From the sequence record OZ035822.1: a DNA stretch of 44,789 nt. The stretch is one strand, 5' to 3'. Shown in pieces: positions 3,105 through 40,446 of this stretch (position 1 is its first letter; each line of letters starts with the position of its first letter). Under the pieces are notes generated by a model, which saw only the letters and a program-made list of their open reading frames with translations, made no database searches and was not told the DNA's origin. The translations under genes were made by a program, and so were the position numbers. The DNA is from Vectrevirus PDP21P6.

Positions 3105-3392
3105 ATGTCTAATTATGGAAACGCAGGTACTGTTACTGGTCAAGCTTTTCGAGTAAAAACTGTACAAACCACTGCAACGGCAATCCCTTTGCCTATTGTT
3201 GCTGAAGCAGACCTTAAGAAGAAAGATCACCCTATCAACATTAAACACCTATCTGGCAAACAGAAAGGCTCCATGGTTGCTGTAGAGAAAGCAGACAACT
3301 CCTTGTACATCGCTATTGCACGTGGTAGTGAACCAACTGACCCTTGGGATGCAACCACTATGGAGGAGACACCTGTAACCCCTGTAGCTTAA
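3105..3392 (+). CDS. hypothetical protein, tandem paralog B
   Basis: 95 aa, AGGAGA RBS, clear paralog of 2814-3092. Confidence 0.6.
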   Translation: MSNYGNAGTVTGQAFRVKTVQTTATAIPLPIVAEADLKKKDHPINIKHLSGKQKGSMVAVEKADNSLYIAIARGSEPTDPWDATTMEETPVTPVA

Positions 3393-12018: not shown

Positions 12019-12080
12019 CCTTATCGGTGGCATCTTCTTAGGTGTCACCTATTAAGGTTTCTTTAACGGGAGTACACAAA

Positions 12081-14708
12081 ATGCAGGACTTATACGCTAT
12101 CCAGCTTCAGCTTGAAGAAGAGATGTTTAATGGTGGTATCCGTCGCTTTGAAGCAGACCAACAACGCCAGATTGCATCCGGTAATGAATCCGACACGGCA
12201 TGGAATCGCCGCTTATTGTCTGAGTTAATCGCACCGATGGCGGAAGGTATTCAGGCTTATAAGGAAGAGTATGAAGGCAAGCGCGGTCGTGCACCGCGTG
12301 CATTGGCTTTCATTAACTGCGTAGAAAATGAAGTGGCAGCGTATATCACGATGAAAATCGTAATGGATATGCTTAATAATGATGTGACTTTGCAGGCTAT
12401 AGCCATGAATGTAGCTGACCGCATAGAAGACCAAGTGCGCTTCAGCAAGCTGGAAGGACACGCCGCCAAATACTTTGAGAAAGTTAAGAAGTCACTTAAG
12501 GCAAGTAAGACTAAATCATATCGCCATGCGCACAACGTAGCGGTCGTGGCTGAGAAGTCAGTAGCTGACCGTGACGCTGATTTCTCTCGCTGGGAGGCGT
12601 GGCCTAAAGATACCTTGCTACAAATCGGTATGACCTTGCTAGAAATACTGGAGAATAGCGTATTCTTCAACGGGCAGCCTGTTTTCCTCCGCACCTTGCG
12701 CACTAACGGCGGCAAGCATGGCGTTTACTACTTACAGACTAGCGAACACGTGGGTGAATGGATAACTGCATTTAAAGAGCACGTAGCGCAATTAAGTCCT
12801 GCCTATGCGCCTTGCGTTATTCCTCCTCGTCCGTGGGTTTCTCCGTTTAATGGTGGCTTCCATACCGAGAAGGTGGCGAGTCGTATTCGTCTGGTTAAAG
12901 GAAACCGCGAGCACGTCCGCAAGCTGACCAAAAAGCAAATGCCAGCGGTTTACAAGGCTGTTAACGCTTTGCAGGCGACTAAGTGGCAGGTTAATAAAGA
13001 GGTTTTGCAGGTAGTAGAGGACGTTATCCGTCTCGACCTTGGTTATGGTGTGCCTTCCTTTAAACCACTCATCGACCGTGAGAACAAGCCAGCTAATCCA
13101 GTGCCGTTAGAGTTCCAGCACCTGCGAGGCCGTGAACTTAAAGAGATGCTAACGCCGGAACAATGGCAAGCCTTCATCAACTGGAAAGGCGAATGTACCA
13201 AGCTGTATACCGCTGAAACTAAGCGCGGCAGCAAGTCGGCGGCAACCGTTCGCATGGTCGGGCAGGCCCGTAAATACAGCCAGTTTGACGCAATATACTT
13301 CGTGTATGCACTGGATAGCCGTTCACGCGTTTATGCGCAATCTAGCACGCTCTCGCCGCAATCAAACGACCTAGGCAAGGCGTTACTGCGTTTCACCGAA
13401 GGGCAGCCTCTAAATAACTCTGAGGCGCTTAAGTGGTTTTTGGTGAACGGTGCTAATAACTGGGGTTGGGATAAGAAAACTTTCGACGTCCGCACCGCTA
13501 ACGTGTTAGATGGTGAATTCCAAGACATGTGCCGCGATATTGCAGCCGACCCGCTGACTTTTACTCAATGGGTGAATGCTGACTCCCCTTATGGCTTCCT
13601 TGCATGGTGCTTTGAATATGCGCGTTATCTGGATGCACTGGATGAAGGCACGCAAGACCAATTCATGACGCACCTACCCGTCCATCAAGACGGTAGTTGC
13701 TCTGGTATCCAGCACTATAGCGCGATGTTACGCGATGAAGTAGGTGCGAAAGCAGTAAACCTTAAGCCTTCTGACTCCCCTCAAGATATTTATGGCGCGG
13801 TTGCGCAGGTTGTTATCCAGAAGAATTACGCTTACATGAATGCAGATGATGCAGAGACGTTCACATCTGGAAGCGTCACACTTACAGGTGCAGAACTGCG
13901 TAGCATGGCTAGCGCATGGGATATGATAGGTATCACTCGCGGATTAACCAAAAAGCCGGTAATGACCTTGCCGTATGGCTCTACCCGCTTAACATGCCGT
14001 GAGTCAGTGATTGATTATATTGTTGATTTGGAAGAAAAAGAGGCACAAAGGGCTATTGCAGAAGGGCGGACGGCTAATCCGGTGCACCCTTTTGATAATG
14101 ACCGTAAAGATTATTTAACACCGGGCGCAGCTTATAACTACATGACCGCGTTAATTTGGCCTTCTATCTCTGAGGTTGTTAAAGCACCTATAGTGGCGAT
14201 GAAAATGATTCGCCAACTCGCACGATTCGCAGCTAAAAGAAACGAAGGGTTAGAATATCCCTTGCCTACTGGCTTTATCTTGCAACAAAAGATAATGGCT
14301 ACCGACATGCTACGCGTATCCACTTGCTTGATGGGTGAAATCAAGATGAGTCTACAGATTGAGACTGATGTAGTGGATGAAACGGCAATGATGGGCGCTG
14401 CCGCTCCCAACTTTGTTCACGGGCATGATGCTAGTCATCTCATCCTGACTGTATGTGACCTCGTTGATAAGGGCATTACATCCATCGCAGTCATCCATGA
14501 TTCCTTTGGTACTCATGCAGGCCGTACAGCAGACCTGCGGGATAGCTTAAGGGCAGAAATGGTGAAGATGTATCAAGGTCGTAATGCCCTGCAAAGCCTG
14601 TTAGATGAGCATGAAGAACGCTGGTTAGTAGACACCGGAATCCAAGTGCCAGAGCAAGGAGAATTTGACCTTAACGAAATCTTAGTATCTGACTATTGCT
14701 TCGCATAA
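12081..14708 (+). CDS. single-subunit DNA-directed RNA polymerase (T7/SP6 family)
   Basis: motifs [37 protein letters not shown] and C-terminal ...YCFA; ATG 12081; N-terminus [16 protein letters not shown] resembles SP6-type RNAPs from memory. Confidence 0.95.
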
Positions 14709-14747: not shown

Positions 14748-14781
14748 ACCTACTACCGGTAACATTTCATTAACATAAAGT

Positions 14782-14797
14782 GTCTCACATGTGAGAC
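14782..14797 (+). repeat. 16-bp perfect palindrome GTCTCACATGTGAGAC (copy 1)
   Basis: exact palindrome, 3 bp upstream of promoter 14800. Confidence 0.8.
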
Positions 14798-14799
14798 TT

Positions 14800-14822: not shown

Positions 14823-14963
14823 CCGTCGGAGACGGGAAAGAAAGGGAAGATAAAGGATATAAAAGGAAGTAATAGGTATTAAAGGTTATATAGGTTATCT
14901 AGGAATACCTATTACCTCCTTCCTTCCTCTTATTACTACTTAGAGGAAGGGCAGATCTAGGTT

Positions 14964-14979
14964 GTCTCACATGTGAGAC
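14964..14979 (+). repeat. 16-bp perfect palindrome GTCTCACATGTGAGAC (copy 2)
   Basis: exact palindrome, 5 bp upstream of promoter 14985. Confidence 0.8.
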
Positions 14980-14984
14980 TTCGT

Positions 14985-15383: not shown

Positions 15384-17371
15384 TGGCTATTATTAATAAC
15401 ATTCCGTGCCCTGCCTGCCAGAAGAATGGACACGATAAATCCGGCAATCATCTTATGATATTTGATGACGGTGCTGGCTACTGTAACCGTGGTCACTTCC
15501 ATGATAATGGCAAGCCTTACTACCATAAGCCCGAAGGTGGCATCGAGATAACAGAGTTACCTATCACTGGCAACATCAAATATACACCTTCTCAGTTTAA
15601 AGAGATGGAGAAGGAAGGGAAGATAAGCGACCCTAAGTTGCGCGCCATCGCACTTGGTGGTATGCGTATGAAAGACCGTTGGGAGGTCATGAATGAGCAA
15701 GAAAGGGCAGAGCAAGAAGCAGAGTGGAAACTTGATGTTGAATGGTTCCTCACGCTTAAGCGTAAGAATCTTGTTTCCCGACACATTCGCGGCGACATTT
15801 GCGCATTGTATGATGTACGTGTCGGACATGATGAAGAGGGTAGAGTCTCACGGCATTACTATCCACGCTTCGAGAAAGGTGAACTAGTAGGCGCTAAGTG
15901 TCGCACATTACCTAAAGACTTTAAGTTTGGTCATTTAGGTAAACTATTTGGTATGCAAGATCTTTTCGGTATGAATACTTTGTCTCACGTGTTAGACAAG
16001 GGAAGACGAAAGGATTGCTTGCTTATTGTGGGTGGGGAACTGGATGCACTAGCAGCGCAGCAGATGCTCCTTGATTCTGCCAAGGGTACTAAGTGGGAAG
16101 GGCAGCCTTACCATGTATGGTCTGTCAATAAGGGTGAATCTTGCCTTGAAGAAATTGTGCAGAACCGTGAGCACATAGCCCAATTCAAGAAGATTATTTG
16201 GGGCTTTGATGGGGATGAGGTAGGACAGAAGCAGAACCAACAAGCGGCTCGCCTGTTTCCCGGCAAATCCTACATCCTTGAATACCCTTCTGGTTGCAAA
16301 GATGCCAACAAGGCATTGATGGCTGGTAAGGCCAAAGAATTTGTGGATGCTTGGTTTAATGCAAAGTCATCTGATGAAGTCTTTGGTAGCCAGATTAAAT
16401 CTATCGCATCTCAAAGGGATAAGCTCAAGGCTGCACGTCCAGAACAAGGGCTGTCATGGCCTTGGCCTAAGCTAAACAAGGTAACGCTGGGTATCCGTAA
16501 GAATCAGCTTATCATTGTAGGTGCAGGCTCTGGTGTGGGTAAGACTGAGTTTCTCCGTGAAGTAGTTAAGCATCTCATTGAAGAACACGGTGAATCTGTA
16601 GGCATCATTTCTACAGAAGACCCGATGGTCAAAGTGTCCCGTGCTTTTATCGGCAAATGGATTGATAAGCGTATTGAGTTACCACCAACCAACGACCCGA
16701 AAGAAGATGGATACCGTGAGGTGTTCGACTATACCGAGGAAGAAGCTAACGCCGCCATTGATTATGTAGCCGATACAGGGAAGCTGTTTGTAGCTGACCT
16801 AGAAGGTGACTACTCGATGGAGAAGGTAGAGCAGACCTGCCTTGAGTTTGAGGCTATGGGTATTTCCAATATCATCATTGATAACTTAACGGGGATTAAA
16901 TTAGATGAGCGTGCTTTTGGTGGGAAGGTTGGTGCACTTGATGAATGCGTCAAGCGGATTGGTACTATCAAAGACCGACACCCAGTTACTATATTCCTTG
17001 TATCACACCTTACACGTCCTCCGGCAAACCGTACCCAACACGAAGAAGGTGGCGAGGTTATCCTTTCTGACTTCCGAGGCTCAGGGGCTATCGGATTCTG
17101 GGCATCTTACGCCTTGGGGATTGAGCGTAACACAAGAGCTGAAACGCTTGATGAAAGAACTACCACGTACATTTCATGTGTCAAAGACCGCGACCAAGGT
17201 ATCTACACCGGAACCAAGATCATGCTTAAGGGTGACATTCAGACCGGACGTTTGAGAGAACCTCAAGCCCGTACTAGGTCATTTGATACAGGCGAAGCAA
17301 GGCAACAAGAAGTGCCTGATTTACCGGACACTATAGAAGAGACTAACTTCGATGAAGAAAGTGAGTTCTGA
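15383..17371 (+). CDS. DNA primase/helicase (T7 gp4-like)
   Basis: N-terminal zinc ribbon CPACQKNGHDKSG...YCNRGHFH, Walker A GAGSGVGKT, acidic C-terminal tail ending ...NFDEESEF. Confidence 0.9.
   Translation: MAIINNIPCPACQKNGHDKSGNHLMIFDDGAGYCNRGHFHDNGKPYYHKPEGGIEITELPITGNIKYTPSQFKEMEKEGKISDPKLRAIALGGMRMKDRWEVMNEQERAEQEAEWKLDVEWFLTLKRKNLVSRHIRGDICALYDVRVGHDEEGRVSRHYYPRFEKGELVGAKCRTLPKDFKFGHLGKLFGMQDLFGMNTLSHVLDKGRRKDCLLIVGGELDALAAQQMLLDSAKGTKWEGQPYHVWSVNKGESCLEEIVQNREHIAQFKKIIWGFDGDEVGQKQNQQAARLFPGKSYILEYPSGCKDANKALMAGKAKEFVDAWFNAKSSDEVFGSQIKSIASQRDKLKAARPEQGLSWPWPKLNKVTLGIRKNQLIIVGAGSGVGKTEFLREVVKHLIEEHGESVGIISTEDPMVKVSRAFIGKWIDKRIELPPTNDPKEDGYREVFDYTEEEANAAIDYVADTGKLFVADLEGDYSMEKVEQTCLEFEAMGISNIIIDNLTGIKLDERAFGGKVGALDECVKRIGTIKDRHPVTIFLVSHLTRPPANRTQHEEGGEVILSDFRGSGAIGFWASYALGIERNTRAETLDERTTTYISCVKDRDQGIYTGTKIMLKGDIQTGRLREPQARTRSFDTGEARQQEVPDLPDTIEETNFDEESEF
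17319..17341 (+). promoter_or_regulatory. phage RNAP promoter embedded in 3' end of primase-helicase gene
   Basis: ATTTACCGGACACTATAGAAGAG, +1 G at 17336. Confidence 0.6.
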
Positions 17372-17388: not shown

Positions 17389-17419
17389 GCTTGTCTCACA
17401 TGTGAGACAGGCTCTTATT
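17389..17419 (+). terminator. terminator-like hairpin containing palindrome copy 3
   Basis: GCTTGTCTCACATGTGAGACAGGC (core GTCTCACATGTGAGAC at 17393-17408) followed by TCTTATT. Confidence 0.55.
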
Positions 17420-18614: not shown

Positions 18615-18645
18615 GGTTGTCTCACGTGTGAGACAGCCTTTTCAT
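18615..18645 (+). terminator. terminator-like hairpin containing palindrome copy 4
   Basis: GGTTGTCTCACGTGTGAGACAGCC (core GTCTCACGTGTGAGAC at 18619-18634) followed by CTTTTC. Confidence 0.55.
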
Positions 18646-23472: not shown

Positions 23473-23473
23473 A

Positions 23474-23489
23474 GTCTCACGTGTGAGAC
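23474..23489 (+). repeat. 16-bp perfect palindrome GTCTCACGTGTGAGAC (copy 5)
   Basis: exact palindrome (CACGTG centre variant), 15 bp upstream of promoter 23505. Confidence 0.8.
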
Positions 23490-23504
23490 AACTCGGTGTC
23501 CTGT

Positions 23505-26126: not shown

Positions 26127-27133
26127 TGGGTAAGATTCGAAACTTGTTTACTAATAAGGAGGTAGAAGAAGCAGTTGAAAGTGCAAAGCGGGACAACGGC
26201 ACTATCAACTATCGCCTAATGGCGTCTATTCTCTCAGATAACACGCATGGAACTACAGTTACAAGACAACTTGCAAAGTATTGGGCCAAACAGTTTGAAA
26301 AGCGGAAGAAGAATGGCGAGGCTTATGAAACCTTGGCTATTGCGAACCGCGCTATCAAAGAAGAACGTAAGCTCAGGACTCCTGACCGCTACGAGGATTT
26401 GGCTATTGTACCATTGCCTGACTCGCCTCATCGAAGTGTACTGGTAATACCTGACACCCATGCACCTTATGAGCATCCAGATACATTAGAGTTTCTGGCA
26501 GCGGTGGCAGCACGTTACCGTCCAGACACTGTAGTTCATCTTGGTGATGAGGCGGACAAGCACGCACTTTCATTCCATACGTCAGATCCTAATCTGGATT
26601 CTGCTGGTATGGAGTTAGAGAAGGCTCGTATCTTCATGCGTAAATTACATAAGATGTTCCCTGTAATGCGCATCTGCCACTCTAATCATGGCTCCTTACA
26701 TTTCCGTAAGGCCAGTGCTCATGGCATCCCTGTGCAATACTTGCGCACCTACCGTGAAGTCTTCTTCCCGCAGGGAGGTGGCGACCAGTGGGACTGGCAG
26801 CATACGCATGTCCTTGAGTTACCTAATGGAGAACAGGTGGCATTCAAGCATCAACCTGCTGGTTCTGTCCTAGCAGATGCAGCACACGAGCGTATGAACC
26901 TTGTGTGTGGTCATTTGCATGGTAAGATGTCTGTTGAGTATGCACGTAATACACATGAACAGTATTGGGCTGTGCAAGGTGGCTGTCTGATTGATGAGTC
27001 ATCTCGTGCATTTGCCTATGGTCGTGAGTCTAAATACAAGCCAGCATTAGGTTGTGTGGTCATTCTGGAAGGTGTGCCTCATATTGTCCCGATGCAAACC
27101 AATAGCAACAATCGCTGGATTGGTAAGATTTAG
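26126..27133 (+). CDS. calcineurin-like metallophosphoesterase
   Basis: motifs VIPDTHAPY, GDEADKH, SNHG, GHLHG; ATG overlaps upstream stop. Confidence 0.75.
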   Translation: MGKIRNLFTNKEVEEAVESAKRDNGTINYRLMASILSDNTHGTTVTRQLAKYWAKQFEKRKKNGEAYETLAIANRAIKEERKLRTPDRYEDLAIVPLPDSPHRSVLVIPDTHAPYEHPDTLEFLAAVAARYRPDTVVHLGDEADKHALSFHTSDPNLDSAGMELEKARIFMRKLHKMFPVMRICHSNHGSLHFRKASAHGIPVQYLRTYREVFFPQGGGDQWDWQHTHVLELPNGEQVAFKHQPAGSVLADAAHERMNLVCGHLHGKMSVEYARNTHEQYWAVQGGCLIDESSRAFAYGRESKYKPALGCVVILEGVPHIVPMQTNSNNRWIGKI

Positions 27134-27150
27134 TTGACACTATAGAACAA
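27128..27150 (+). promoter_or_regulatory. phage RNAP promoter (variant, closer to SP6 consensus)
   Basis: ATTTAGTTGACACTATAGAACAA, +1 G at 27145; followed by hairpin 27151-27172 and TGATTGTGTAGTG box. Confidence 0.5.
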
Positions 27151-27201
27151 AGGGCAGGTACTAGCTTGCCCTTGATTGTGTAGTGAATGGAGGAATTAAT
27201 T

Positions 27202-27847: not shown

Positions 27848-28791
27848 ACATCTTCCAATTTCTAGGTCTTCCAGAAGAACACCGCAATCACCCGTTCATG
27901 CTGGTGAAACATCGCGGTGAAGTTCCTGAGAAGAAATTAACCTTTCCATGTTATGCACAGGTGAAACGAGATGGAATATTCAGTGCTGTTGTGGTGCGTA
28001 ATGATGGTGTTGTTGCCATCTTTGGTCGTACTGGTAAGAAGCTCGCAAATGTTGAAGCCTTGGAAAAGACATTTAGTGTATTTCCTGTCGGGTTGTATCT
28101 TGGTGAGTTGCAATCTATGGCTGTTGATGTTTATCTTGAAGCTCTGTCAGGAGTGGTAAACCCTAATCGTACAGAGCCACTTGACTTCATAGGCCAGCAG
28201 ATTAAAGACAACCTGTATATCGACTTCTTCGATATGTTAACTATTAAGGCATTCCATGATGGATTCACTGATGTTTCTTATCTCAAACGTTACGATGCTT
28301 TACATCGTCGCATCGGCGCTCATCTTAGCGGGTACAACGCTATCCTTCCTATTACTCCTTGCCATAATGAGCGAGAAGTTGAAGCGTTTGCGCAAGAGCA
28401 GATAGACGCAGGCCGAGAGGGTGCTGTATTCAAACTGGACTGCGATTATGAAGCAGGCCACAAAGGTTATCGTCAGACTAAAGAAGTCCGTAAGGTAACT
28501 TATGACCTTACTTGTATTGGCTTTGAAGAAGGTAAAGGTAAGTACAAAGGTAAGGTAGCTAACCTCATTTTCAAATGGAAAGGAGGCAAGACAATCAAAG
28601 CTATGTTAGGTAAAGGGTGGACTCATGCAGATGCAGAACAGATGTTCCACGACATTAAACATGGTGGACGATTGAATGTCATTGGTAAAATCTTTGAAGT
28701 CAAAGGTCTTCAGGATTCAAGCAAGGGCAACATTCGTCTGCCCAAAGCGGGAGAATTAAGACATGACAAAGATGAACCAGATTTCTTTTGA
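27844..28791 (+). CDS. ATP-dependent DNA ligase
   Basis: adenylation motif I KRDG in CYAQVKRDGIFSAVV; 315 aa. Confidence 0.85.
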   Translation: MNIFQFLGLPEEHRNHPFMLVKHRGEVPEKKLTFPCYAQVKRDGIFSAVVVRNDGVVAIFGRTGKKLANVEALEKTFSVFPVGLYLGELQSMAVDVYLEALSGVVNPNRTEPLDFIGQQIKDNLYIDFFDMLTIKAFHDGFTDVSYLKRYDALHRRIGAHLSGYNAILPITPCHNEREVEAFAQEQIDAGREGAVFKLDCDYEAGHKGYRQTKEVRKVTYDLTCIGFEEGKGKYKGKVANLIFKWKGGKTIKAMLGKGWTHADAEQMFHDIKHGGRLNVIGKIFEVKGLQDSSKGNIRLPKAGELRHDKDEPDFF

Positions 28792-28978
28792 TAGCATGAA
28801 GGCAACTCGTGCAGTTGAGGTAGCAGAAGCTATCTTTGAAACTTTATCCTGTGGCATGGAAGTGCCATATACTTTACTTGCTGATGCAGAAGAACTTGGT
28901 CTTTCTGTAGAAGCTATCCAAGAGAAGGTTGACGAATTATATGGTACAGACGAAGAAGAAACCGACGATTTCATTTGA
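28763..28978 (+). CDS. hypothetical acidic protein
   Basis: 71-aa acidic ORF with GGGAG RBS; overlaps ligase 3' end. Confidence 0.35.
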   Translation: MTKMNQISFDSMKATRAVEVAEAIFETLSCGMEVPYTLLADAEELGLSVEAIQEKVDELYGTDEEETDDFI

Positions 28979-28988
28979 AGGAATGGAG

Positions 28989-29111
28989 ATGCTTGAGATG
29001 ATTCTCAAGCCTTCTTCTCCGAAGGTGACTAAGACTCATGAAGAGTTAATCGTTGATGAAGTGAAGCGTTACATCATGGATTGTGTCAGAGCACAACTGG
29101 TGGTCCAATGA
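28989..29111 (+). CDS. hypothetical small protein
   Basis: 40-aa ORF with AAGGA RBS; stop overlaps GNAT start. Confidence 0.25.
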   Translation: MLEMILKPSSPKVTKTHEELIVDEVKRYIMDCVRAQLVVQ

Positions 29112-29569
29112 TACGTCCAGCTTCCTTCCTAGATATTCCTGAGATTATAAACCTTGGGAATAAATATGTGGAAGAGGAAGTCAAGGTTGTAGCCCACCAC
29201 TCAGCCTCATGGAATGCAGAACAAAGTGCACATAACCTTTGTGCATCTCTTAGTAGAGAAGATTTATTCCTATGGGTTGCTGTAGATGAAGGGCAGATTG
29301 TAGGGTTCCTGTGGGCTGGCTATCACGAGTTGGCCCCTTGGACACCTGTAAGAGTTGCCTCTGACATTCTCTTTTATATTATACCAGAGAGGCGAGGAAC
29401 ACTTCTTGGTATGCGTCTCATCAAAGCCCTAAAGCAATGGGCTAGTGATAATGAATGCTCTGAGGTTCGCCTGTCTATCGCCTCTGGTATTAATGAAGAA
29501 CGTGTCGGACGTATGTATAAGCGACTTGGCTTTGAACCGTTTGGCACTGTGTATAACATGAAGTTCTAA
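29108..29569 (+). CDS. GNAT-family N-acetyltransferase
   Basis: acetyl-CoA binding motifs RRGTLLGMRLIKAL and ERVGRMYKRLGFEP; 153 aa. Confidence 0.7.
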   Translation: MIRPASFLDIPEIINLGNKYVEEEVKVVAHHSASWNAEQSAHNLCASLSREDLFLWVAVDEGQIVGFLWAGYHELAPWTPVRVASDILFYIIPERRGTLLGMRLIKALKQWASDNECSEVRLSIASGINEERVGRMYKRLGFEPFGTVYNMKF

Positions 29570-29578
29570 GGAGATAAC

Positions 29579-29788
29579 ATGGGTGTTGTAAAGAAAGCAT
29601 TTAAGGCTATCGGTCTTGCTCAAGATGCACCACGTATTGAAGCCAAAGTACCAGCACAGCAGCTTGAGCGTAAGCCCGAGACTGAAGCTGAAGATATTCA
29701 GATTGGTGCAGGAGATGATGATGCGACTGCATCTGCAAAAGGTAAGCGCGGCCTTGTCCGTCCGGTAGCTTCTAGCTTGAAGGTGTAA
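29579..29788 (+). CDS. hypothetical protein upstream of portal
   Basis: 69-aa ORF with AAGGAG RBS. Confidence 0.45.
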   Translation: MGVVKKAFKAIGLAQDAPRIEAKVPAQQLERKPETEAEDIQIGAGDDDATASAKGKRGLVRPVASSLKV

Positions 29789-29789
29789 T

Positions 29790-31340
29790 ATGAAACAGAG
29801 CACAGATTTGGAGTACGGAGGTAAGCGGTCTAAGATACCTAAGCTATGGGAGAAGTTCTCCACTAAACGTAGCTCTTTCCTTGATAGGGCGAAGCATTAC
29901 TCCAAATTAACCTTGCCCTATCTGATGAATGACAAAGGTGATAACGAGACTTCGCAGAATGGATGGCAAGGTGTAGGTGCTCAGGCAACTAATCATCTAG
30001 CCAACAAGCTAGCGCAAGTACTATTCCCTGCACAGCGTTCCTTCTTCCGTGTAGACTTAACTGCACAAGGTGAGAAGGTTCTTAATCAGCGTGGCCTGAA
30101 GAAGACAGAGCTAGCTACCATCTTCGCTCAAGTGGAAACACGGGCAATGAAAGAGTTAGAGCAACGTCAATTCCGGCCTGCTGTAGTGGAAGCATTCAAG
30201 CATCTTATTGTTGCTGGTAGCTGTATGCTATACAAGCCGAGCAAAGGTGCAATCAGTGCTATCCCAATGCATCACTATGTAGTTAACCGTGATACCAATG
30301 GCGACCTGTTAGACATTATCTTACTGCAAGAGAAAGCCTTACGCACCTTTGACCCAGCTACACGTGCTGTAGTAGAGGTTGGCCTGAAAGGTAAGAAGTG
30401 CAAGGAAGATGACAGCGTTAAGCTGTACACACATGCTAAGTATCTTGGTGATGGATTTTGGGAACTCAAGCAATCTGCTGATGATATCCCTGTGGGTAAG
30501 GTGAGTAAAATCAAATCAGAAAAGCTACCTTTCATCCCATTAACTTGGAAGCGAAGCTATGGTGAGGATTGGGGTCGCCCTCTTGCAGAGGATTACTCCG
30601 GTGATTTATTCGTTATCCAATTCTTATCTGAAGCGGTTGCCCGTGGTGCTGCGCTGATGGCAGATATCAAGTACCTGATTCGTCCGGGTGCTCAAACTGA
30701 TGTTGACCACTTTGTTAACTCTGGCACTGGTGAGGTTGTCACTGGTGTAGAAGAAGACATCCATATTGTACAGTTAGGTAAGTATGCAGACCTCACACCT
30801 ATTAGCGCGGTTCTAGAGGTATACACTCGCCGTATCGGTGTTGTCTTCATGATGGAGACAATGACACGCCGTGACGCCGAACGTGTTACTGCTGTAGAAA
30901 TCCAGCGAGATGCGTTAGAGATTGAGCAGAACATGGGTGGTGTATACTCCCTCTTTGCTACTACTATGCAATCGCCAGTAGCGATGTGGGGTCTGCTGGA
31001 GGCAGGGGAGTCCTTCACTAGTGACTTAGTGGACCCTGTGATTATCACAGGTATTGAAGCTTTAGGGCGCATGGCTGAGTTGGATAAACTGGCTAACTTT
31101 GCTCAGTATATGTCACTGCCATTACAATGGCCTGAGCCTGTCCTAGCTGCTGTGAAATGGCCTGACTATATGGATTGGGTGCGTGGTCAAATCTCTGCTG
31201 AACTGCCGTTCCTTAAATCGGCTAAAGAGATGGCACAAGAACAGGAGGCACAGGTGCAAGCACAGCAAGCACAGATGCTTGAAGAAGGTGTGGCTAAGGC
31301 CGTGCCGGGTGTAATTCAACAAGAACTTAAGGAGGCGTAA
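29790..31340 (+). CDS. head-to-tail connector (portal) protein
   Basis: 516 aa; N-terminal region NGWQGVGAQATNHLANKLAQVLFP resembles T7 gp8; precedes scaffold and capsid. Confidence 0.9.
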   Translation: MKQSTDLEYGGKRSKIPKLWEKFSTKRSSFLDRAKHYSKLTLPYLMNDKGDNETSQNGWQGVGAQATNHLANKLAQVLFPAQRSFFRVDLTAQGEKVLNQRGLKKTELATIFAQVETRAMKELEQRQFRPAVVEAFKHLIVAGSCMLYKPSKGAISAIPMHHYVVNRDTNGDLLDIILLQEKALRTFDPATRAVVEVGLKGKKCKEDDSVKLYTHAKYLGDGFWELKQSADDIPVGKVSKIKSEKLPFIPLTWKRSYGEDWGRPLAEDYSGDLFVIQFLSEAVARGAALMADIKYLIRPGAQTDVDHFVNSGTGEVVTGVEEDIHIVQLGKYADLTPISAVLEVYTRRIGVVFMMETMTRRDAERVTAVEIQRDALEIEQNMGGVYSLFATTMQSPVAMWGLLEAGESFTSDLVDPVIITGIEALGRMAELDKLANFAQYMSLPLQWPEPVLAAVKWPDYMDWVRGQISAELPFLKSAKEMAQEQEAQVQAQQAQMLEEGVAKAVPGVIQQELKEA

Positions 31341-32260
31341 TGTCTTTCTCATTTACTGAACCGTCAACCACTCACCCTACTGCTGAAGAGGGTCCGGTAG
31401 AAACCAAGGAGGTAACAACTGATGCTGCTACTACTGATGCTCCTGCTGACGCTGGCACTGCTGTACAAGATGACAATGCTGGTGCACAACCTACTGAAGA
31501 CACCGGAGGAGAAGCTTCTGGACAGCCTTCAGAAAAAGGAGACAATGGCGGAGAGAATGGTGAACCTAAGCCAGATGATACCGCGACCGACACTGAGGAA
31601 GTGCAATACTTCTTCGGAGAACATGAAGTAACAGTAGACATCCCACAGGATGTAACTGACAGCCTTAAAGAGAAAGGCATTGATGCCAAGCAGGTTGCCA
31701 AGGAACTCTATTCCAAAGGTGGCAAGTTTGAACTGTCAGATGCAACCAAGCAGAAATTGTATGATGCTTTTGGCAAGTTTGCGGTAGATGCTTACCTGTC
31801 AGGTCTTAAGGCTCAAAATGAAGCCTTCTTCCTGAAAGAAGCCAACGCAGCTAAAGAGTTGGAAGCAGCTAACACCCAACGCTTCTCTGATGTTTCTAAG
31901 GAAATTGGTGGCGAAGAAGGTTGGTCCCGTCTTGAGGAGTGGGCGCTTGAAACTCTATCCGATGACGAACTCACGGCATTCAATGCGGTGATGGAGTCTG
32001 GCAACCAGTACCTCCAGCAGTACGCTGTGCGTGAACTGGAGAGCCGCCGTAAGGCTGCACAGGGTGATGACAAACCAAACCTGATTGAACCCTCTGCACC
32101 TGCTGCTGCATCTGAAGATAATGGCCCACTCTCTCGTGAGCAGTACCTGCGTGAGATGATGACTCTTAGCTCTCGCTTCGGTACAGACAAGAAAGCTGCT
32201 GCTGAGTATCAGGCTAAACTGGATGCTCGCCGTCGTGCTGGTATGGCTCGCGGTCTGTAA
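31340..32260 (+). CDS. capsid assembly scaffolding protein
   Basis: 306-aa acidic protein between portal and capsid genes (T7 gp9 position). Confidence 0.75.
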   Translation: MSFSFTEPSTTHPTAEEGPVETKEVTTDAATTDAPADAGTAVQDDNAGAQPTEDTGGEASGQPSEKGDNGGENGEPKPDDTATDTEEVQYFFGEHEVTVDIPQDVTDSLKEKGIDAKQVAKELYSKGGKFELSDATKQKLYDAFGKFAVDAYLSGLKAQNEAFFLKEANAAKELEAANTQRFSDVSKEIGGEEGWSRLEEWALETLSDDELTAFNAVMESGNQYLQQYAVRELESRRKAAQGDDKPNLIEPSAPAAASEDNGPLSREQYLREMMTLSSRFGTDKKAAAEYQAKLDARRRAGMARGL

Positions 32261-32266
32261 TCAGTA

Positions 32267-32289
32267 TTTACTGGACACTATAGAAGGGA
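32267..32289 (+). promoter_or_regulatory. phage RNAP promoter for capsid gene
   Basis: ATTTACTGGACACTATAGAAGGG, +1 G at 32283. Confidence 0.75.
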
Positions 32290-32301
32290 GAAATGTCTCC
32301 C
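32286..32301 (+). promoter_or_regulatory. 5'-terminal leader stem-loop of capsid mRNA
   Basis: GGGAGA-aatg-TCTCCC at +4 to +19 of the predicted transcript. Confidence 0.45.
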
Positions 32302-33549: not shown

Positions 33550-33583
33550 GCCCTATCTACCTTGCGTAGGTAGGGTTCTTTTT
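33550..33583 (+). terminator. T-phi-like intrinsic terminator after capsid gene
   Basis: CCCTATCTACC-ttgcg-TAGGTAGGG then TTCTTTTT; near-identical design to 24008-24041. Confidence 0.7.
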
Positions 33584-33596
33584 GTTAGGAGGATTC

Positions 33597-34334
33597 ATGC
33601 CTGTAATTAAACAAACCAGTAAAGTAGGACACATGATGGAAGATGTGGCCTTCCAGATTATTGATAGCAAGCTTGAAGCGGTCAACTTGTGTATGCGAGC
33701 TATTGGTCGTGAGGGTGTGGATTCTCTCGACTCAGGCGATCTTGATGCAGAAGATGCAAGTAAGATGATTGATATTGTATCCCAGCGCTTCCAGTATAAT
33801 AAAGGCGGTGGCTGGTGGTTCAATCGTGAACCTAACTGGCAGCTTGCACCAGACACGAACGGTGAGATTAACTTGCCTAATAACTGCCTAGCTGTATTGC
33901 AGTGCTACGCATTGGGTGAGAAGAAAGTGCCTATGACTATGCGTGCAGGTAAGCTTTACTCCACATGGAGTCACACCTTTGATATGCGCAAGCATGTTAA
34001 TGCTAATGGCATGATTCGTCTTACCTTACTCACCTTACTACCCTACGAGCATCTACCTACAAGTGTAATGCAGGCTATTGCCTATCAATCTGCTGTAGAG
34101 TTTATTGTGTCTAAGGATGCAGATCAGACTAAGCTAGCCACTGCGCAGCAGATAGCCACTCAGCTTCTTATGGATGTACAATCTGAGCAAATGTCACAGA
34201 AGCGATTAAACATGCTGGTACATAACCCCACTCAGCGTCAGTTTGGTATCATGGCTGGTGGCTCTCAGAATGTACCTGCTTACTCTCATTCACCTTATGA
34301 AAGTTGGGCGCTCCGTCCGTGGGAGGATCGTTAA
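33597..34334 (+). CDS. tail tubular protein A (gp11-like)
   Basis: ATG 33597 with AGGAGG RBS; 245 aa; conserved position after capsid. Confidence 0.8.
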   Translation: MPVIKQTSKVGHMMEDVAFQIIDSKLEAVNLCMRAIGREGVDSLDSGDLDAEDASKMIDIVSQRFQYNKGGGWWFNREPNWQLAPDTNGEINLPNNCLAVLQCYALGEKKVPMTMRAGKLYSTWSHTFDMRKHVNANGMIRLTLLTLLPYEHLPTSVMQAIAYQSAVEFIVSKDADQTKLATAQQIATQLLMDVQSEQMSQKRLNMLVHNPTQRQFGIMAGGSQNVPAYSHSPYESWALRPWEDR

Positions 34335-36736
34335 TGGAAGTACAAGGTTCATTAGGTAGACAAATCCAAGGGATTAGCCAGCAGCCGCCAGCGGTACGCT
34401 TGGATGGTCAGTGCACAGCTATGATTAATATGATACCTGATGTAGTGAATGGTACTCAATCACGCATGGGTACAACTCATATTGCAAAGATACTTGATGC
34501 GGGGGCTGATGACATGGCTACTCATCATTATCGCAGAGGTGATGGTGATGAAGAGTATTTCTTCACGTTGAAGAAAGGACAAGTTCCTGAGATATTTGAT
34601 AAGTATGGGCGCAAATGTAATGTGACTTCACAAGATGCACCTATGACTTACTTAACTGAAGTAGTCAACCCAAGGGAAGATGTGCAATTTATGACTATTG
34701 CAGATGTAACCTTTATGCTTAATCGAAGAAAGGTAGTTAAAGCTCGTACTGATAAATCACCAAAGGTTGGAAATAAGGCGATTGTCTTCTGCGCCTATGG
34801 CCAATATGGGACTACTTATAAAATTATAATTGATGGCAATGTAGCAGCTACACGTACCACCCCTGACGGTGGTGAAGCGGGTCAAGTTGTAAATATAAGA
34901 ACAGAAGACATTACAAACCACCTTTATGATAGTTTACAGCAATGGAGTGGTATTAATGCCTACAACATCCAGAAAGATGGAACAAGTATCTTTATTGAAA
35001 AGAAAGATGGTAGCTCTTTTAATATTACTACAGAAGATGGTGCAAAAGGTAAGGACTTAGTAGCCATAAAGAACCGTGTAGCCTCTACCGACCTTCTACC
35101 CTCCCGTGCACCTGAAGGTTACAAAGTGCAAGTATGGCCTACTGGAAGTAAACCGGAGTCACGTTATTGGCTGGAAGCAGAGCCAAAAGAGGGGAATTTA
35201 GTATCATGGCAAGAGACAGTAGCGGCGGATGTTTTACTTGGCTTTGATAAAGGGACCATGCCGTATATTATTGAGCGTACAGGTATCATTGATGGTATTG
35301 CTCAATTTAAGATTAGGCAGGGTGATTGGGAAGACCGCAAGGTGGGGGATGACCTCACTAACCCTATGCCGTCTTTCATTGATGAAGAAGTTCCTCAGAC
35401 AATTGGCGGAATGTTCATGGTGCAGAACCGTTTATGCTTTACAGCAGGTGAAGCTGTCATTGCATCACGCACTTCCTACTTCTTTGATTTCTTTCGTTAT
35501 ACGGTTATCTCTGCATTGGCAACTGACCCATTTGATATTTTCTCAGATGCTAGTGAAGTCTACCAGCTAAAACATGCAGTGACCTTAGATGGCGCTACCG
35601 TGTTGTTCTCTGATAAGTCACAATTCATACTGCCAGGCGATAAGCCTTTAGAGAAGTCAAATGCACTGCTTAAGCCTGTTACAACATTTGAAGTGAACAA
35701 TAAAGTGAAGCCAGTAGTAACTGGTGAATCGGTAATGTTTGCCACTAATGATGGTTCTTACTCTGGTGTACGAGAGTTCTATACAGACTCTTATAGTGAC
35801 ACTAAGAAGGCACAAGCAATCACAAGTCATGTGAATAAACTCATCGAAGGTAACATTACCAACATGGCAGCAAGCACCAATGTCAACAGGTTACTTGTCA
35901 CTACCGATAAGTATCGTAACATAATCTACTGCTACGATTGGTTATGGCAAGGCACAGATCGTGTACAATCAGCATGGCATGTATGGGAGTGGCCTATGGG
36001 TACAAAGGTGCGCGGTATGTTTTACTCTGGTGAATTACTTTATCTACTCCTTGAGCGAGGTGGTGGCGTCTATCTGGAGAAGATGGACATGGGGGATGCA
36101 CTGACCTATGGTTTGAATGACCGCATCCGAATGGATAGGCAAGCAGAGTTGATCTTCAAGCATTTTAAAGCAGAAGATGAGTGGAGATCTGAACCACTTC
36201 CTTGGACTCCTACTAACCCAGAACTTTTGGATTGCATCTTAATAGAAGGGTGGGATTCATATATTGGAGGTTCTTTCCTATTCAAATATAACCCTAGTGA
36301 TAATACCTTGTCTACAACCTTTGATATGTATGATGATGACCGCGTAAAAGCGAAGGTTATTGTTGGGCAGATTTACCCTCAAGAGTTTGAACCTACACCT
36401 GTAGTCATTAGAGACAGGCAAGACCGTGTATCCTATATTGATGTACCTGTTGTGGGATTAGTTCACCTTAATCTTGATATGTATCCTGATTTCTCCGTGG
36501 AGGTTAAGAATGTGAAGAGTGGTAAAGTACGCAAGGTGCTAGCGTCAAACCGTATAGGTGGTGCTCTCAACAATACAGTAGGTTATGTTGAACCAAGAGA
36601 GGGTGTCTTCAGATTCCCACTGAGGGCTAAGAGTACGGATGCTGTTTATCGTATTATTGTAGAATCACCTCACACATTCCAGCTCCGCGATATTGAGTGG
36701 GAAGGGAGCTACAATCCAACCAAAAGGAGGGTCTAA
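34334..36736 (+). CDS. tail tubular protein B (gp12-like)
   Basis: 800 aa, start overlaps gp11 stop (TAATG). Confidence 0.85.
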   Translation: MEVQGSLGRQIQGISQQPPAVRLDGQCTAMINMIPDVVNGTQSRMGTTHIAKILDAGADDMATHHYRRGDGDEEYFFTLKKGQVPEIFDKYGRKCNVTSQDAPMTYLTEVVNPREDVQFMTIADVTFMLNRRKVVKARTDKSPKVGNKAIVFCAYGQYGTTYKIIIDGNVAATRTTPDGGEAGQVVNIRTEDITNHLYDSLQQWSGINAYNIQKDGTSIFIEKKDGSSFNITTEDGAKGKDLVAIKNRVASTDLLPSRAPEGYKVQVWPTGSKPESRYWLEAEPKEGNLVSWQETVAADVLLGFDKGTMPYIIERTGIIDGIAQFKIRQGDWEDRKVGDDLTNPMPSFIDEEVPQTIGGMFMVQNRLCFTAGEAVIASRTSYFFDFFRYTVISALATDPFDIFSDASEVYQLKHAVTLDGATVLFSDKSQFILPGDKPLEKSNALLKPVTTFEVNNKVKPVVTGESVMFATNDGSYSGVREFYTDSYSDTKKAQAITSHVNKLIEGNITNMAASTNVNRLLVTTDKYRNIIYCYDWLWQGTDRVQSAWHVWEWPMGTKVRGMFYSGELLYLLLERGGGVYLEKMDMGDALTYGLNDRIRMDRQAELIFKHFKAEDEWRSEPLPWTPTNPELLDCILIEGWDSYIGGSFLFKYNPSDNTLSTTFDMYDDDRVKAKVIVGQIYPQEFEPTPVVIRDRQDRVSYIDVPVVGLVHLNLDMYPDFSVEVKNVKSGKVRKVLASNRIGGALNNTVGYVEPREGVFRFPLRAKSTDAVYRIIVESPHTFQLRDIEWEGSYNPTKRRV

Positions 36737-37458
36737 TGGCTATAGGTTCAGCCGTTATGGCTGGTATGTCTTCTATTGGTAGTATGTTTGCAGGTAGCGG
36801 TACAGCAGCCGCTGCTGGAGGTGCTGCCGCAGGTGGCGGAGGTTTGCTAGGTTCATTAGGTGGCTTCCTAAGCGGTTCCACTGCTGGCTTCTCTAATGCG
36901 GGTCTTCTTGGTGCTGGCCTTCAAGGGTTAGGATTGATTGGTGATCTCTTTGGTGGAAGTGATGAAGCCAAGGCCATGAAGAAAGCACAAGAAGAGCAAT
37001 GGCGGCAGCAGCTTATTGCTACACAAGAGGCGTACAAGACAGTGGCAGACGCAGAGCGTTCTGCTGCTAAACAATATCATGCAGATGCAATAAGCAATCA
37101 GGCTTCACTACTACAGCAGCGAGCACAGGTTGCATTACTAGCAGGTGCTACTGGTACTGGTGGTAACTCTGTATCTTCTATGCTGAATGACTTAGCAGCA
37201 GAGGGCGGGAGGAACCAGAGTACAATTATTGATAACTATGAGAATCAGAAGATTAACTTCACTAATCAGCTTAAGTCCATCCAGCGAGGTGGGCAGATGC
37301 AGATGCGTGAGTTTAAGAAACCTTCTGCTGTGAGCACCTTGGTTCAAGGTATCCCAAGTCTGGCTTCTGCTTATGTAACTGGTAGCAAGTCGGGTATGGC
37401 TTTAGGTAAAGCTCTAACGGATTCTCGTACATACTCATCTGGAACAAGAGGTATTTAA
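36736..37458 (+). CDS. internal virion protein (gp14-like)
   Basis: 240 aa, Gly/Ala-rich N-terminal region; start overlaps upstream stop. Confidence 0.6.
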   Translation: MAIGSAVMAGMSSIGSMFAGSGTAAAAGGAAAGGGGLLGSLGGFLSGSTAGFSNAGLLGAGLQGLGLIGDLFGGSDEAKAMKKAQEEQWRQQLIATQEAYKTVADAERSAAKQYHADAISNQASLLQQRAQVALLAGATGTGGNSVSSMLNDLAAEGGRNQSTIIDNYENQKINFTNQLKSIQRGGQMQMREFKKPSAVSTLVQGIPSLASAYVTGSKSGMALGKALTDSRTYSSGTRGI

Positions 37459-40417: not shown

Positions 40418-40446
40418 AGGCTTGTCTCACATGTGAGACAGGTCTT
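40418..40446 (+). terminator. terminator-like hairpin containing palindrome copy 6
   Basis: AAGGCTTGTCTCACATGTGAGACAGGTCTTT (core GTCTCACATGTGAGAC at 40424-40439). Confidence 0.5.

Follow-up and report, generated by a model that had tools for sequence, protein, structure and literature searches.

Vectrevirus PDP21P6 (sequence record OZ035822.1), whose whole sequence of 44,789 nucleotides (nt) is referred to below as the window, carries on its plus strand a gene encoding a 153-amino-acid (aa) acetyltransferase of the GNAT family. We consider it practically certain that the product is a GNAT enzyme and the ortholog of gp27 of phage K1-5, and very probable that the gene occupies a conserved GNAT-fold slot ahead of the portal gene, which is shared with Rac of phage LUZ19 and gp7 of phage T7. 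With regard to function, the reading that we favour, at a probability of about 0.4, is that of a late, non-virion protein acetyltransferase with a morphogenesis-linked protein target, connected with the morphogenesis or infectivity of the virion. In itself the gene is unremarkable; the added value of the analysis is contextual and lies in a GNAT-fold slot linking Rac, T7 gp7 and the acetyltransferases of the IVP-A slot.

Identification of the gene and its orthologs

The initial annotation, made from the sequence alone, had placed a 153-aa open reading frame (ORF) at positions 29108-29569, and these boundaries proved exact, the plus-strand ORF running from an ATG at 29108-29110 to a TAA at 29567-29569. 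The longest ORF on the program-made list opens further upstream, at a TTG at 29081; the ATG at 29108 was taken as the start because it matches the start in all homologs. The region of the gene is 99% identical to Vectrevirus genomes (K1-5/K1E-like phages; Autographiviridae, Molineuxvirinae). The protein is 100% identical to those of Escherichia phage 6949 and Vectrevirus LI10P3, and its identity is 95-100% with the Vectrevirus copies and about 75% with SP6 gp28. The gene is K1-5 gene 27 (YP_654128, 'acetyltransferase'), the same gene as K1E gp27 and SP6 gp28, with identical neighbours, and RefSeq labels the orthologs of K1-5 gene 27 'acetyltransferase' or 'GNAT family N-acetyltransferase'. Since this annotation is public, in RefSeq as well as in identical GenBank copies, the feature was already known and is not new. 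The ratio of nonsynonymous to synonymous substitution (dN/dS) was 0.04-0.20 in comparisons with eight relatives, which indicates strong purifying selection; therefore, the ORF does not stand open by chance but is a functional gene.

The reference copy of gene 27 in K1-5 encodes 175 aa because of a 66-base-pair (bp) near-tandem duplication after residue 29, which is absent from the 153-aa window copy. The first copy of the duplicated segment is frame-shifted by a 1-nt deletion, and the frame is regained by the end of the 66-bp in-frame insertion, which falls in the low-confidence α1-α2 loop of the structural model described below. The split alignment that marks this duplication was seen in none of the other listed relatives, which leaves a mutation of the laboratory strain or an artefact of early sequencing as its origin. 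The window has the length of a complete genome and differs from the GenBank record of K1-5 by circular permutation, so that gene 27 lies at 29.1 kb in the window and at 19.6 kb in K1-5.

Fold and family assignment

Assignment of the protein to the GNAT family, as initially proposed, was borne out by profile, sequence and structure searches. Three Pfam families matched above their cutoffs: Acetyltransf_1 (PF00583; 40.6 bits against a cutoff of 20.7, E=3.4e-10), Acetyltransf_7 (PF13508; 38.1 against 27) and Acetyltransf_10 (PF13673; 25.6 against 23.6). In the PHROG database, family 1249 ('acetyltransferase') matched residues 1-152, that is the full length, with E=4.8e-54, and relatives from phages Era103, phi-A318, NMeng1 and SIO1 belong to the same PHROG or to the same family in tblastn searches. 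An AlphaFold2 model built on 19 relatives had a mean predicted local confidence (pLDDT) of 88.5 and the full topology β1-α1-α2-β2-β3-β4-α3-β5-α4-β6-β7. Comparison of this model with the PDB by Foldseek gave 744 matches at E<=0.001, and all of the 50 listed were GNATs, with template modelling (TM) scores up to 0.79. The listed fold matches span Naa60, RimI-like, phosphinothricin, polyamine and aminoglycoside acetyltransferases at 14-24% identity, and the best PDB sequence match was a Brucella GNAT (4j3g, E=7e-6) deposited as ribosomal-protein-alanine acetyltransferase.

The protein shares with these cellular GNATs (4j3g; Naa60, 5icw; phosphinothricin acetyltransferases, 5dwn and 2bl1; SSAT/DpA) a common fold and a coenzyme A (CoA)-binding core at TM scores of 0.7-0.8, but at such low identity no one subfamily stands out. 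NCBIfam gave sub-threshold matches only (ArsN1, AAC(6'), RimI and others). Since the scores of these equivalog families are far under their cutoffs and no subfamily is outstanding, no substrate can be transferred to the window protein. A profile search with the family against 1.84 billion representative proteins returned 5,801 relatives at E<=1e-3, 1,217 of them at E<=1e-10, and the 150 listed are, with few exceptions, free-standing proteins some 150 aa long. Longer relatives were considered as possible fusions with an informative partner domain and turned out to be tandem GNAT-GNAT proteins only. A contig profile scan with the alignment of close relatives found none of these in cellular genomes, and pattern scans of IMG/VR reached close relatives only.

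Conservation of the catalytic motifs

Residue conservation was calculated from an alignment of 189 diverse GNAT relatives. The acetyl-CoA binding motifs that had been recognised initially are present in part: R96, G97, G/A101 and motif B are conserved, whereas the canonical middle glycine of motif A is absent. Thus the pyrophosphate-binding loop R96-G97-T98-L99-L100-G101 reads R-x-x-L-x-G in place of Q/R-x-x-G-x-G/A, and the position of the middle glycine holds a variable residue throughout the family. Around it, R96 is conserved in a fraction of 0.98 and G97 in 0.89, and position 101 is G in 0.47 and A in 0.45 (G or A, 0.92). The acidic residue D86 on β4 is D in 0.82 and E in 0.11, and conservation is 0.81 for Y90, 0.90 for P93, 0.69 for R132 and 0.95 for G141; Y137, at the general-acid position, is Y in 0.71 and F in 0.13. 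In the AlphaFold2 model the loop is placed between a strand (79-91) and a helix (99-114), and a helix at 130-139 carries motif B. The loop aligns with the motif R-N-S-G-V-V/A of Rac. Pyrophosphate binding in GNATs is done by backbone amides, and the variant loop of the window protein is probably functional. Since the conserved D86, Y90, R96-G97, G/A101, R132, Y137 and G141 are positions that a working GNAT needs, we infer from the alignment that the product would be an active, catalytically competent, stand-alone acetyl-CoA-dependent N-acetyltransferase.

A conserved slot upstream of the portal gene

The gene order small ORF, GNAT, small gp7.3-type virion protein, portal and scaffold was observed in every subfamily of Autographiviridae sampled, which comprised SP6-, phiKMV-, gh-1-, Bonnell-, Colwell- and cyanophage-type phages. 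The slot is occupied in K1-5; in LUZ19 and LKA1 (Krylovirinae); in AH05, a T7-like Ghunavirus (Studiervirinae) whose gene is annotated 'acetyltransferase'; in Bonnellvirus Lidtsur, J8-65 and ROV85; in Era103, phi-A318 (Colwellvirinae) and the Nostoc phage NMeng1; in pphageT21, phiNV3 and Axy21; and, by gp7, in T7, phiEap-1 and PC127. The hosts of phages carrying the family include enterobacteria, Vibrio, Pseudomonas, Roseobacter and Nostoc, and this span over several phyla favours a phage-encoded or universally conserved target. The virion proteome of a Ghunavirus contained the neighbouring gp6.7 and gp7.3, but the protein of the slot went undetected (PMC4517105).

Two observations were made on the records of these phages. 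In Axy21 (MK962638) the Rac-like GNAT of the slot, at about 1405-1851 (+) of the extracted stretch, is unannotated, and the record gives instead an ORF on the minus strand that overlaps it in part. HNH homing endonuclease genes lie inside the block of GNAT, small virion protein and portal genes in phiNV3 (1838-2308 of the extracted stretch) and, as gene 7.7, in T7 (2349-2741 of the extracted stretch); as these inserts occur in two unrelated subfamilies, they suggest that the block is a recurrent homing target.

Relationship to Rac of phage LUZ19

Rac is the only characterised protein of the pre-portal slot. This GNAT (LUZ19 gp28) provokes cleavage of the α-subunit linker of the Pseudomonas aeruginosa RNA polymerase and shuts down host transcription; the phenotype requires the acetyl-CoA pocket, and expression of Rac raises host protein acetylation (PMC7552054). 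The order in LUZ19, gp27 (small), Rac, gp29 (small virion protein), portal and scaffold, is the same as in the window. Alignment of the window family (189 sequences) with the Rac-like family (10 sequences) by hhalign spanned 108 columns at a probability of 96.4% and E=1e-9, against E>=0.05 for reversed sequences, and a hidden Markov model (HMM) of the Rac family picked the GNAT ORF alone among 413 six-frame segments of the window (E=0.003). Weak reciprocal cross-matches were also seen in PHROG, of Rac to phrog_1249 (E=4.9e-4) and of the window protein to the Rac family, phrog_3986 (E=0.076).

BLASTP between the window protein and Rac gave no match, shallow profile comparisons of the two were likewise not significant, and a word-indexed search of proteins with Rac retrieved one protein only. 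A tblastn match of Rac lay on the antisense strand of the gene, at 29301-29125 (59 aa, 25% identity); its E value of 8.6e-4 was obtained with a small database and with low-complexity filtering off, and it was treated as spurious. The window protein falls outside the Rac family profile, and the homology is seen profile-to-profile only, at the level of the superfamily or of a distant clade.

The two proteins thus have the superfamily and the genomic slot in common, and the Rac-aligned pocket positions Y90, I91 (Y, V/I) and G101 (small residue) are kept in the window protein. They are about 15% identical and belong to different PHROGs (3986 and 1249). Rac-like proteins are mini-GNATs that lack helix α4 and motif B, both of which the window protein has; their D-x-HVG hairpin and SHR motifs are absent from it, and they keep a canonical R-x-x-G-x-A loop, whereas the window loop lacks the middle glycine. 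Among the structural neighbours of the window protein in BFVD a Rac-like protein ranks 38th. Taken on their sequences, the two are best described as distant homologs in the same slot and not as one family. Moreover, the LKA1 homolog of Rac, 37% identical to it and in the same slot, causes no α cleavage, the phenotype being specific to the genus Phikmvvirus (PMC7552054); therefore, the Rac phenotype is not to be transferred to the window protein.

T7 gene 7 and the IVP-A slot

It had been stated initially that T7 has no such gene, which is misleading: T7 gene 7 stands in the identical slot with a predicted GNAT fold, and Ghunaviruses carry an acetyltransferase there. Gene 7 (NC_001604, 19130-19531) encodes 133 aa and is annotated 'host range', and the T7 order is gp6.7, gp7, gp7.3, an HNH endonuclease insert, portal and scaffold. 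No Pfam match was found for gp7. The AlphaFold2 model of its family (pLDDT 90.6) has the topology β1-α1-α2-β2-β3-β4-α3-β5-β6, which is that of a GNAT minus helix α4, and all of the 50 PDB fold matches listed for it were GNATs (best E 8e-6). The gp7 family is phrog_2746, to which the GNAT ORF39 of LKA1 matches at E=2.6e-7, and gp7 matches the Rac PHROG at E=0.025; profile-profile comparisons of gp7 with the window and Rac-like families were marginal (E about 0.01). For the window protein no cross-match to PHROG 2746 was found, hhalign giving E=0.012 against 0.04-0.06 for reversed controls, and direct BLASTP and shallow profile comparisons with gp7 were not significant. T7 gp7 thus has slot and fold class in common with the window protein, and a sequence link to the Rac-like clade only. 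It lacks the R..G..G/A residues of the pyrophosphate loop, yet it is conserved. Given the loss of this loop and of α4, gp7 is probably non-catalytic, and we regard it as a predicted degenerate GNAT fold; no paper calling it a GNAT was found in the literature searched.

Distant members of the family also occur at a different position of the structural module. Protein p29 of SIO1, which belongs to Zobellviridae and is not autographivirid, falls in the same PHROG 1249 as the window protein (E=2e-36), and its gene has that for tail tube B on one side and those for the internal virion proteins on the other. Hardies et al. (2016, PMC4819975) described the SIO1/VpV262-type acetyltransferase as small and non-structural and equated its slot with that of T7 IVP-A/gp13; they stated that gp13 is 'required for morphogenesis, not retained in the virion' and that it matches acetyltransferases. 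Published genome descriptions place GNATs in comparable structural-module positions of ZP6 and of the pelagiphage Skadi, which has no phage polymerase. In the window, the tail tube B gene (34304-36736) overlaps that of IVP-B (36697-37458), so there is no gp13-slot gene, and no gp13- or gp7-like sequence was found elsewhere in the window. The fixed portal-side slot frames together Rac, the unexplained T7 gene 7 and the acetyltransferase-like IVP-A slot, and raises, in the tractable phages T7, SP6 and K1-5, the question whether acetylation takes part in podophage virion maturation or whether a takeover enzyme sits at a module boundary.

Proposed function and alternative explanations

In the morphogenesis-linked reading, the GNAT would be a non-virion enzyme made as head and tail components accumulate, and it would move an acetyl group onto an amine of a protein substrate. 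This substrate would be part of, or act on, the virion assembly or ejection machinery, candidates being the internal/ejected proteins and the gp7.3-type protein, which is rich in Lys, and loss of the enzyme would be expected to lower particle infectivity or alter host range and not to prevent early takeover. Three circumstantial lines give weight to this reading: two different arrangements are known in which the family lies within blocks of virion genes, and acetyltransferases are also found in structural modules of podophages without their own RNA polymerase; what T7 has in the corresponding positions are morphogenetic or 'host range' factors; and hosts spanning several phyla favour a phage-encoded target. 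The counterparts gp7 and gp13/IVP-A appear to be GNAT-fold relatives without the CoA-binding motifs. As the slot is filled in all sampled subfamilies, and as a member of the same PHROG in SIO1 and GNATs in ZP6 and Skadi lie in structural modules, the gene is not an accessory insertion.

Several points weigh against this reading. No functional data on K1-5 gp27, K1E gp27 or SP6 gp28, all of PHROG 1249, were found in the literature searched, and Rac, the one relative studied by experiment, has its effect in the host and not on the virion (PMC7552054). Gene position is circumstantial evidence, and fold matches across several GNAT classes at 14-24% identity mean that the substrate class is not assignable. 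The link of gp7 to GNATs consists of a predicted structure and marginal sequence statistics (the hhalign and LKA1 ORF39 values given above), and the 'host range' label of T7 gene 7 comes from its annotation only. Furthermore, the published link of gp13 to GNATs was not reproduced: T7 gp13 matched in PHROG only phrog_308 (DUF2833), hhalign of gp13 against the window family gave a non-significant E=0.024 over 16 columns, and its only PDB sequence matches were two GNATs, both spermidine acetyltransferases, at E about 0.4.

A broader scheme, which we put forward as doubtful, is that the pre-portal GNAT is an ancestral morphogenesis-coupled acetyltransferase of the T7 supergroup. In SP6/K1-5-like phages it would still acetylate a virion or ejection protein, for which the Lys-rich gp7.3-type protein and an internal core protein are candidates, and so set infectivity or host range; its T7 descendants, gp7 and possibly gp13/IVP-A, would now be non-catalytic assembly factors, and Rac would be a lineage-specific redeployment against the host. 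If this were true, acetylation would be part of podophage virion maturation, and T7 gp7 and gp13 would be degenerate relics.

The initial suggestion of a host-takeover function is legitimate, since Rac is a distant homolog in the identical slot, although the conservation of the slot and the GNATs in structural modules point at least as strongly to a late, morphogenesis-linked role. The main alternative, which we consider possible though on balance unlikely, is a Rac-like takeover in which the GNAT would acetylate one or more host proteins, for example of the transcription or proteolysis machinery. The homology of the two families by hhalign with reciprocal PHROG cross-matches, the selection of the GNAT ORF alone by the Rac-family HMM, the rise in host acetylation on expression of Rac, and the retention of Y90, I91 and G101 of a pocket on which the Rac phenotype depends all speak for such a target. 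Against it stand the other PHROG and other architecture of the window protein, with α4 present, and the 38th rank of the Rac-like protein in BFVD. The timing also differs: phiKMV turns off the host polymerase when its own polymerase, which is encoded late, has been made, whereas the polymerase gene is an early one in the T7 group and in SP6-like phages. In the window an 888-aa ORF at 12042-14708, about 14 kb upstream of the GNAT gene, is the presumed RNA polymerase, judging by its length and location. Skadi has an acetyltransferase without a phage polymerase, and SIO1, with its PHROG 1249 member, is not autographivirid. Specific cleavage of the α subunit, a subset of the takeover explanation, is quite improbable, since it is genus-specific, the LKA1 homolog being negative, and the window protein is only about 15% identical to Rac. 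Modification of a small molecule, such as a polyamine (spermidine, putrescine), a toxic amino-acid analogue or an aminoglycoside-like compound, is an improbable alternative, for which adjustment of the counter-ion pool during DNA packaging would be a possible purpose. Such a role would suit a small single-domain GNAT with an aromatic-rich pocket (W35, W69, W78, W111) whose gene adjoins the head-assembly genes for portal and scaffold, DNA packaging coming after head assembly, and PDB sequence matches do include diamine/spermidine acetyltransferases (2bei, E=2.6e-4; SSAT1, about 5e-3), DpA and phosphinothricin acetyltransferases. However, SpeG/SSAT structures are over-represented in the PDB, so the frequency of such matches is uninformative, and the best fold matches are equally protein N-terminal acetyltransferases (Naa60 and the chain deposited as ribosomal-protein-alanine acetyltransferase). 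The weak NCBIfam matches to ArsN1 and AAC(6') are far under their cutoffs (27.7 against 170 bits and 25 against 140), and nothing on polyamine metabolism was found in the neighbourhood of the gene.

The remaining explanations are both very improbable. The GNAT anti-CRISPR AcrVA5 and GNAT toxins, as cited in PMC7552054, are precedents for an anti-defence enzyme that would inactivate a host immune protein or for a tRNA-acetylating toxin of the TacT/AtaT type with the overlapping upstream gene 26 as antitoxin, a layout that superficially resembles a toxin-antitoxin pair. No evidence was found for the anti-defence function proposed initially; the gene is syntenic in every Autographiviridae subfamily sampled, with hosts of several phyla, in contrast to the patchy occurrence usual for anti-defence genes. 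The idea of tRNA modification fared no better: NCBIfam gave no match to GNAT toxins (TacT/AtaT/ItaT), gene 26 has no significant Pfam match and no recognised antitoxin domain, neither a GNAT toxin nor AcrVA5 is among the 50 listed structural matches, and close relatives are absent from the cellular genomes scanned with the close-relative alignment. A scaffold or chaperone that has the GNAT fold but no catalytic activity, which seems to be the case for T7 gp7, would accord with the persistence of gp7 as a conserved fold without the R..G..G/A loop and α4, and with the missing middle glycine of motif A in the window protein too. Unlike gp7, however, the window protein keeps α4, and R96 (98%), G97, G/A101, R132, Y137 and D86 are conserved over the 189 sequences, as would be expected only if CoA binding and catalysis were under selection.

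Genomic neighbourhood and transcription unit

The features of the gene and its surroundings are collected in Table 1. The TGA stop of gene 26 overlaps the GNAT start codon (ATGA, 29108-29111), which implies that the GNAT is translationally coupled to gene 26. Gene 28 begins 9 nt past the GNAT stop with its own AAGGAG ribosome-binding site, and the PHROG of gene 28, phrog_1320, also takes in T7 gp7.3 (E=9.7e-30), a small virion protein that is ejected and is described as 'host range/tail assembly'. The phage promoters were recovered de novo as a dispersed repeat family of 11-13 copies with the consensus ATTTACYGGACACTATAGAAG; a K1-5 promoter consensus, GGCACACTATAGGGA, was also tried and gave only a chance-level match in the window. 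From the promoter at 27128 the order is nucleotide kinase, a 63-aa ORF, DNA ligase, genes 25 and 26, GNAT, gene 28, portal and scaffold, and no convincing terminator was found between this promoter and the GNAT gene. Since the promoters at 27128 and 32266 bracket the gene with no terminator between, we assigned it to one transcription unit with portal and scaffold. The initial placement of the gene just upstream of the structural module is correct in position and understated, as the gp7.3-type gene 28 stands between it and the portal gene; thus the GNAT gene lies inside the head-tail morphogenesis block and not merely upstream of it.

Table 1. Features of the GNAT gene and its surroundings in the window
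Feature	Position	Strand	Basis
Nearest upstream phage RNA polymerase promoter, ATTTAGTTGACACTATAGAACAAAGGG	27128..27154	+	Member of dispersed repeat family
Gene 25, 71 aa, phrog_5860	28763..28978	+	ORF list, K1-5 annotation, PHROG
Gene 26, 56 aa, phrog_6507	28941..29111	+	ORF list, K1-5 annotation, PHROG
GNAT N-acetyltransferase gene, 153 aa	29108..29569	+	ORF, Pfam/PHROG/PDB searches, AlphaFold2, Foldseek, copies 99-100% identical in Vectrevirus genomes, dN/dS
Pyrophosphate-binding β4-α3 loop, codons R96-G101 (R-G-T-L-L-G, motif A variant)	29393..29410	+	Family alignment, model
Motif B / helix α4, codons N129-F142, Y137 at canonical general-acid position, G141-F142	29492..29533	+	Alignment, model
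Gene 28, 69 aa, T7 gp7.3-type small virion / 'host range and adsorption' protein	29579..29788	+	phrog_1320, E=8.7e-12
Portal (head-tail connector) gene	29790..31340	+	Annotation of K1-5 and relatives
Scaffolding protein gene	31340..32260	+	K1-5 annotation
Next phage promoter, before major capsid gene	32266..32292	+	Repeat family
Strong terminator after the 32266 promoter	33550-33576		Terminator scan

Two further observations were made elsewhere in the window. A 95-aa ORF at 3105-3392 (+), similar to K1E gp42, covers the N-terminal 99 of the 238 positions of phrog_2725 'acetyl-CoA acetyltransferase' (E=2e-46), and its 'acetyl' name probably arose as an artefact in the naming of a partial-domain family. 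A family of seven palindromes, each about 18 bp long (TGTCTCACATGTGAGACA), was found at 14781-14799, 14963-14981, 15981-15999, 17392-17410, 18618-18636, 23473-23491 and 40423-40441; three of the seven precede phage promoters (14800, 14985 and 23505) by about 20-30 bp, and the palindromes could be RNA hairpins, serving as processing or termination sites, or protein-binding sites.

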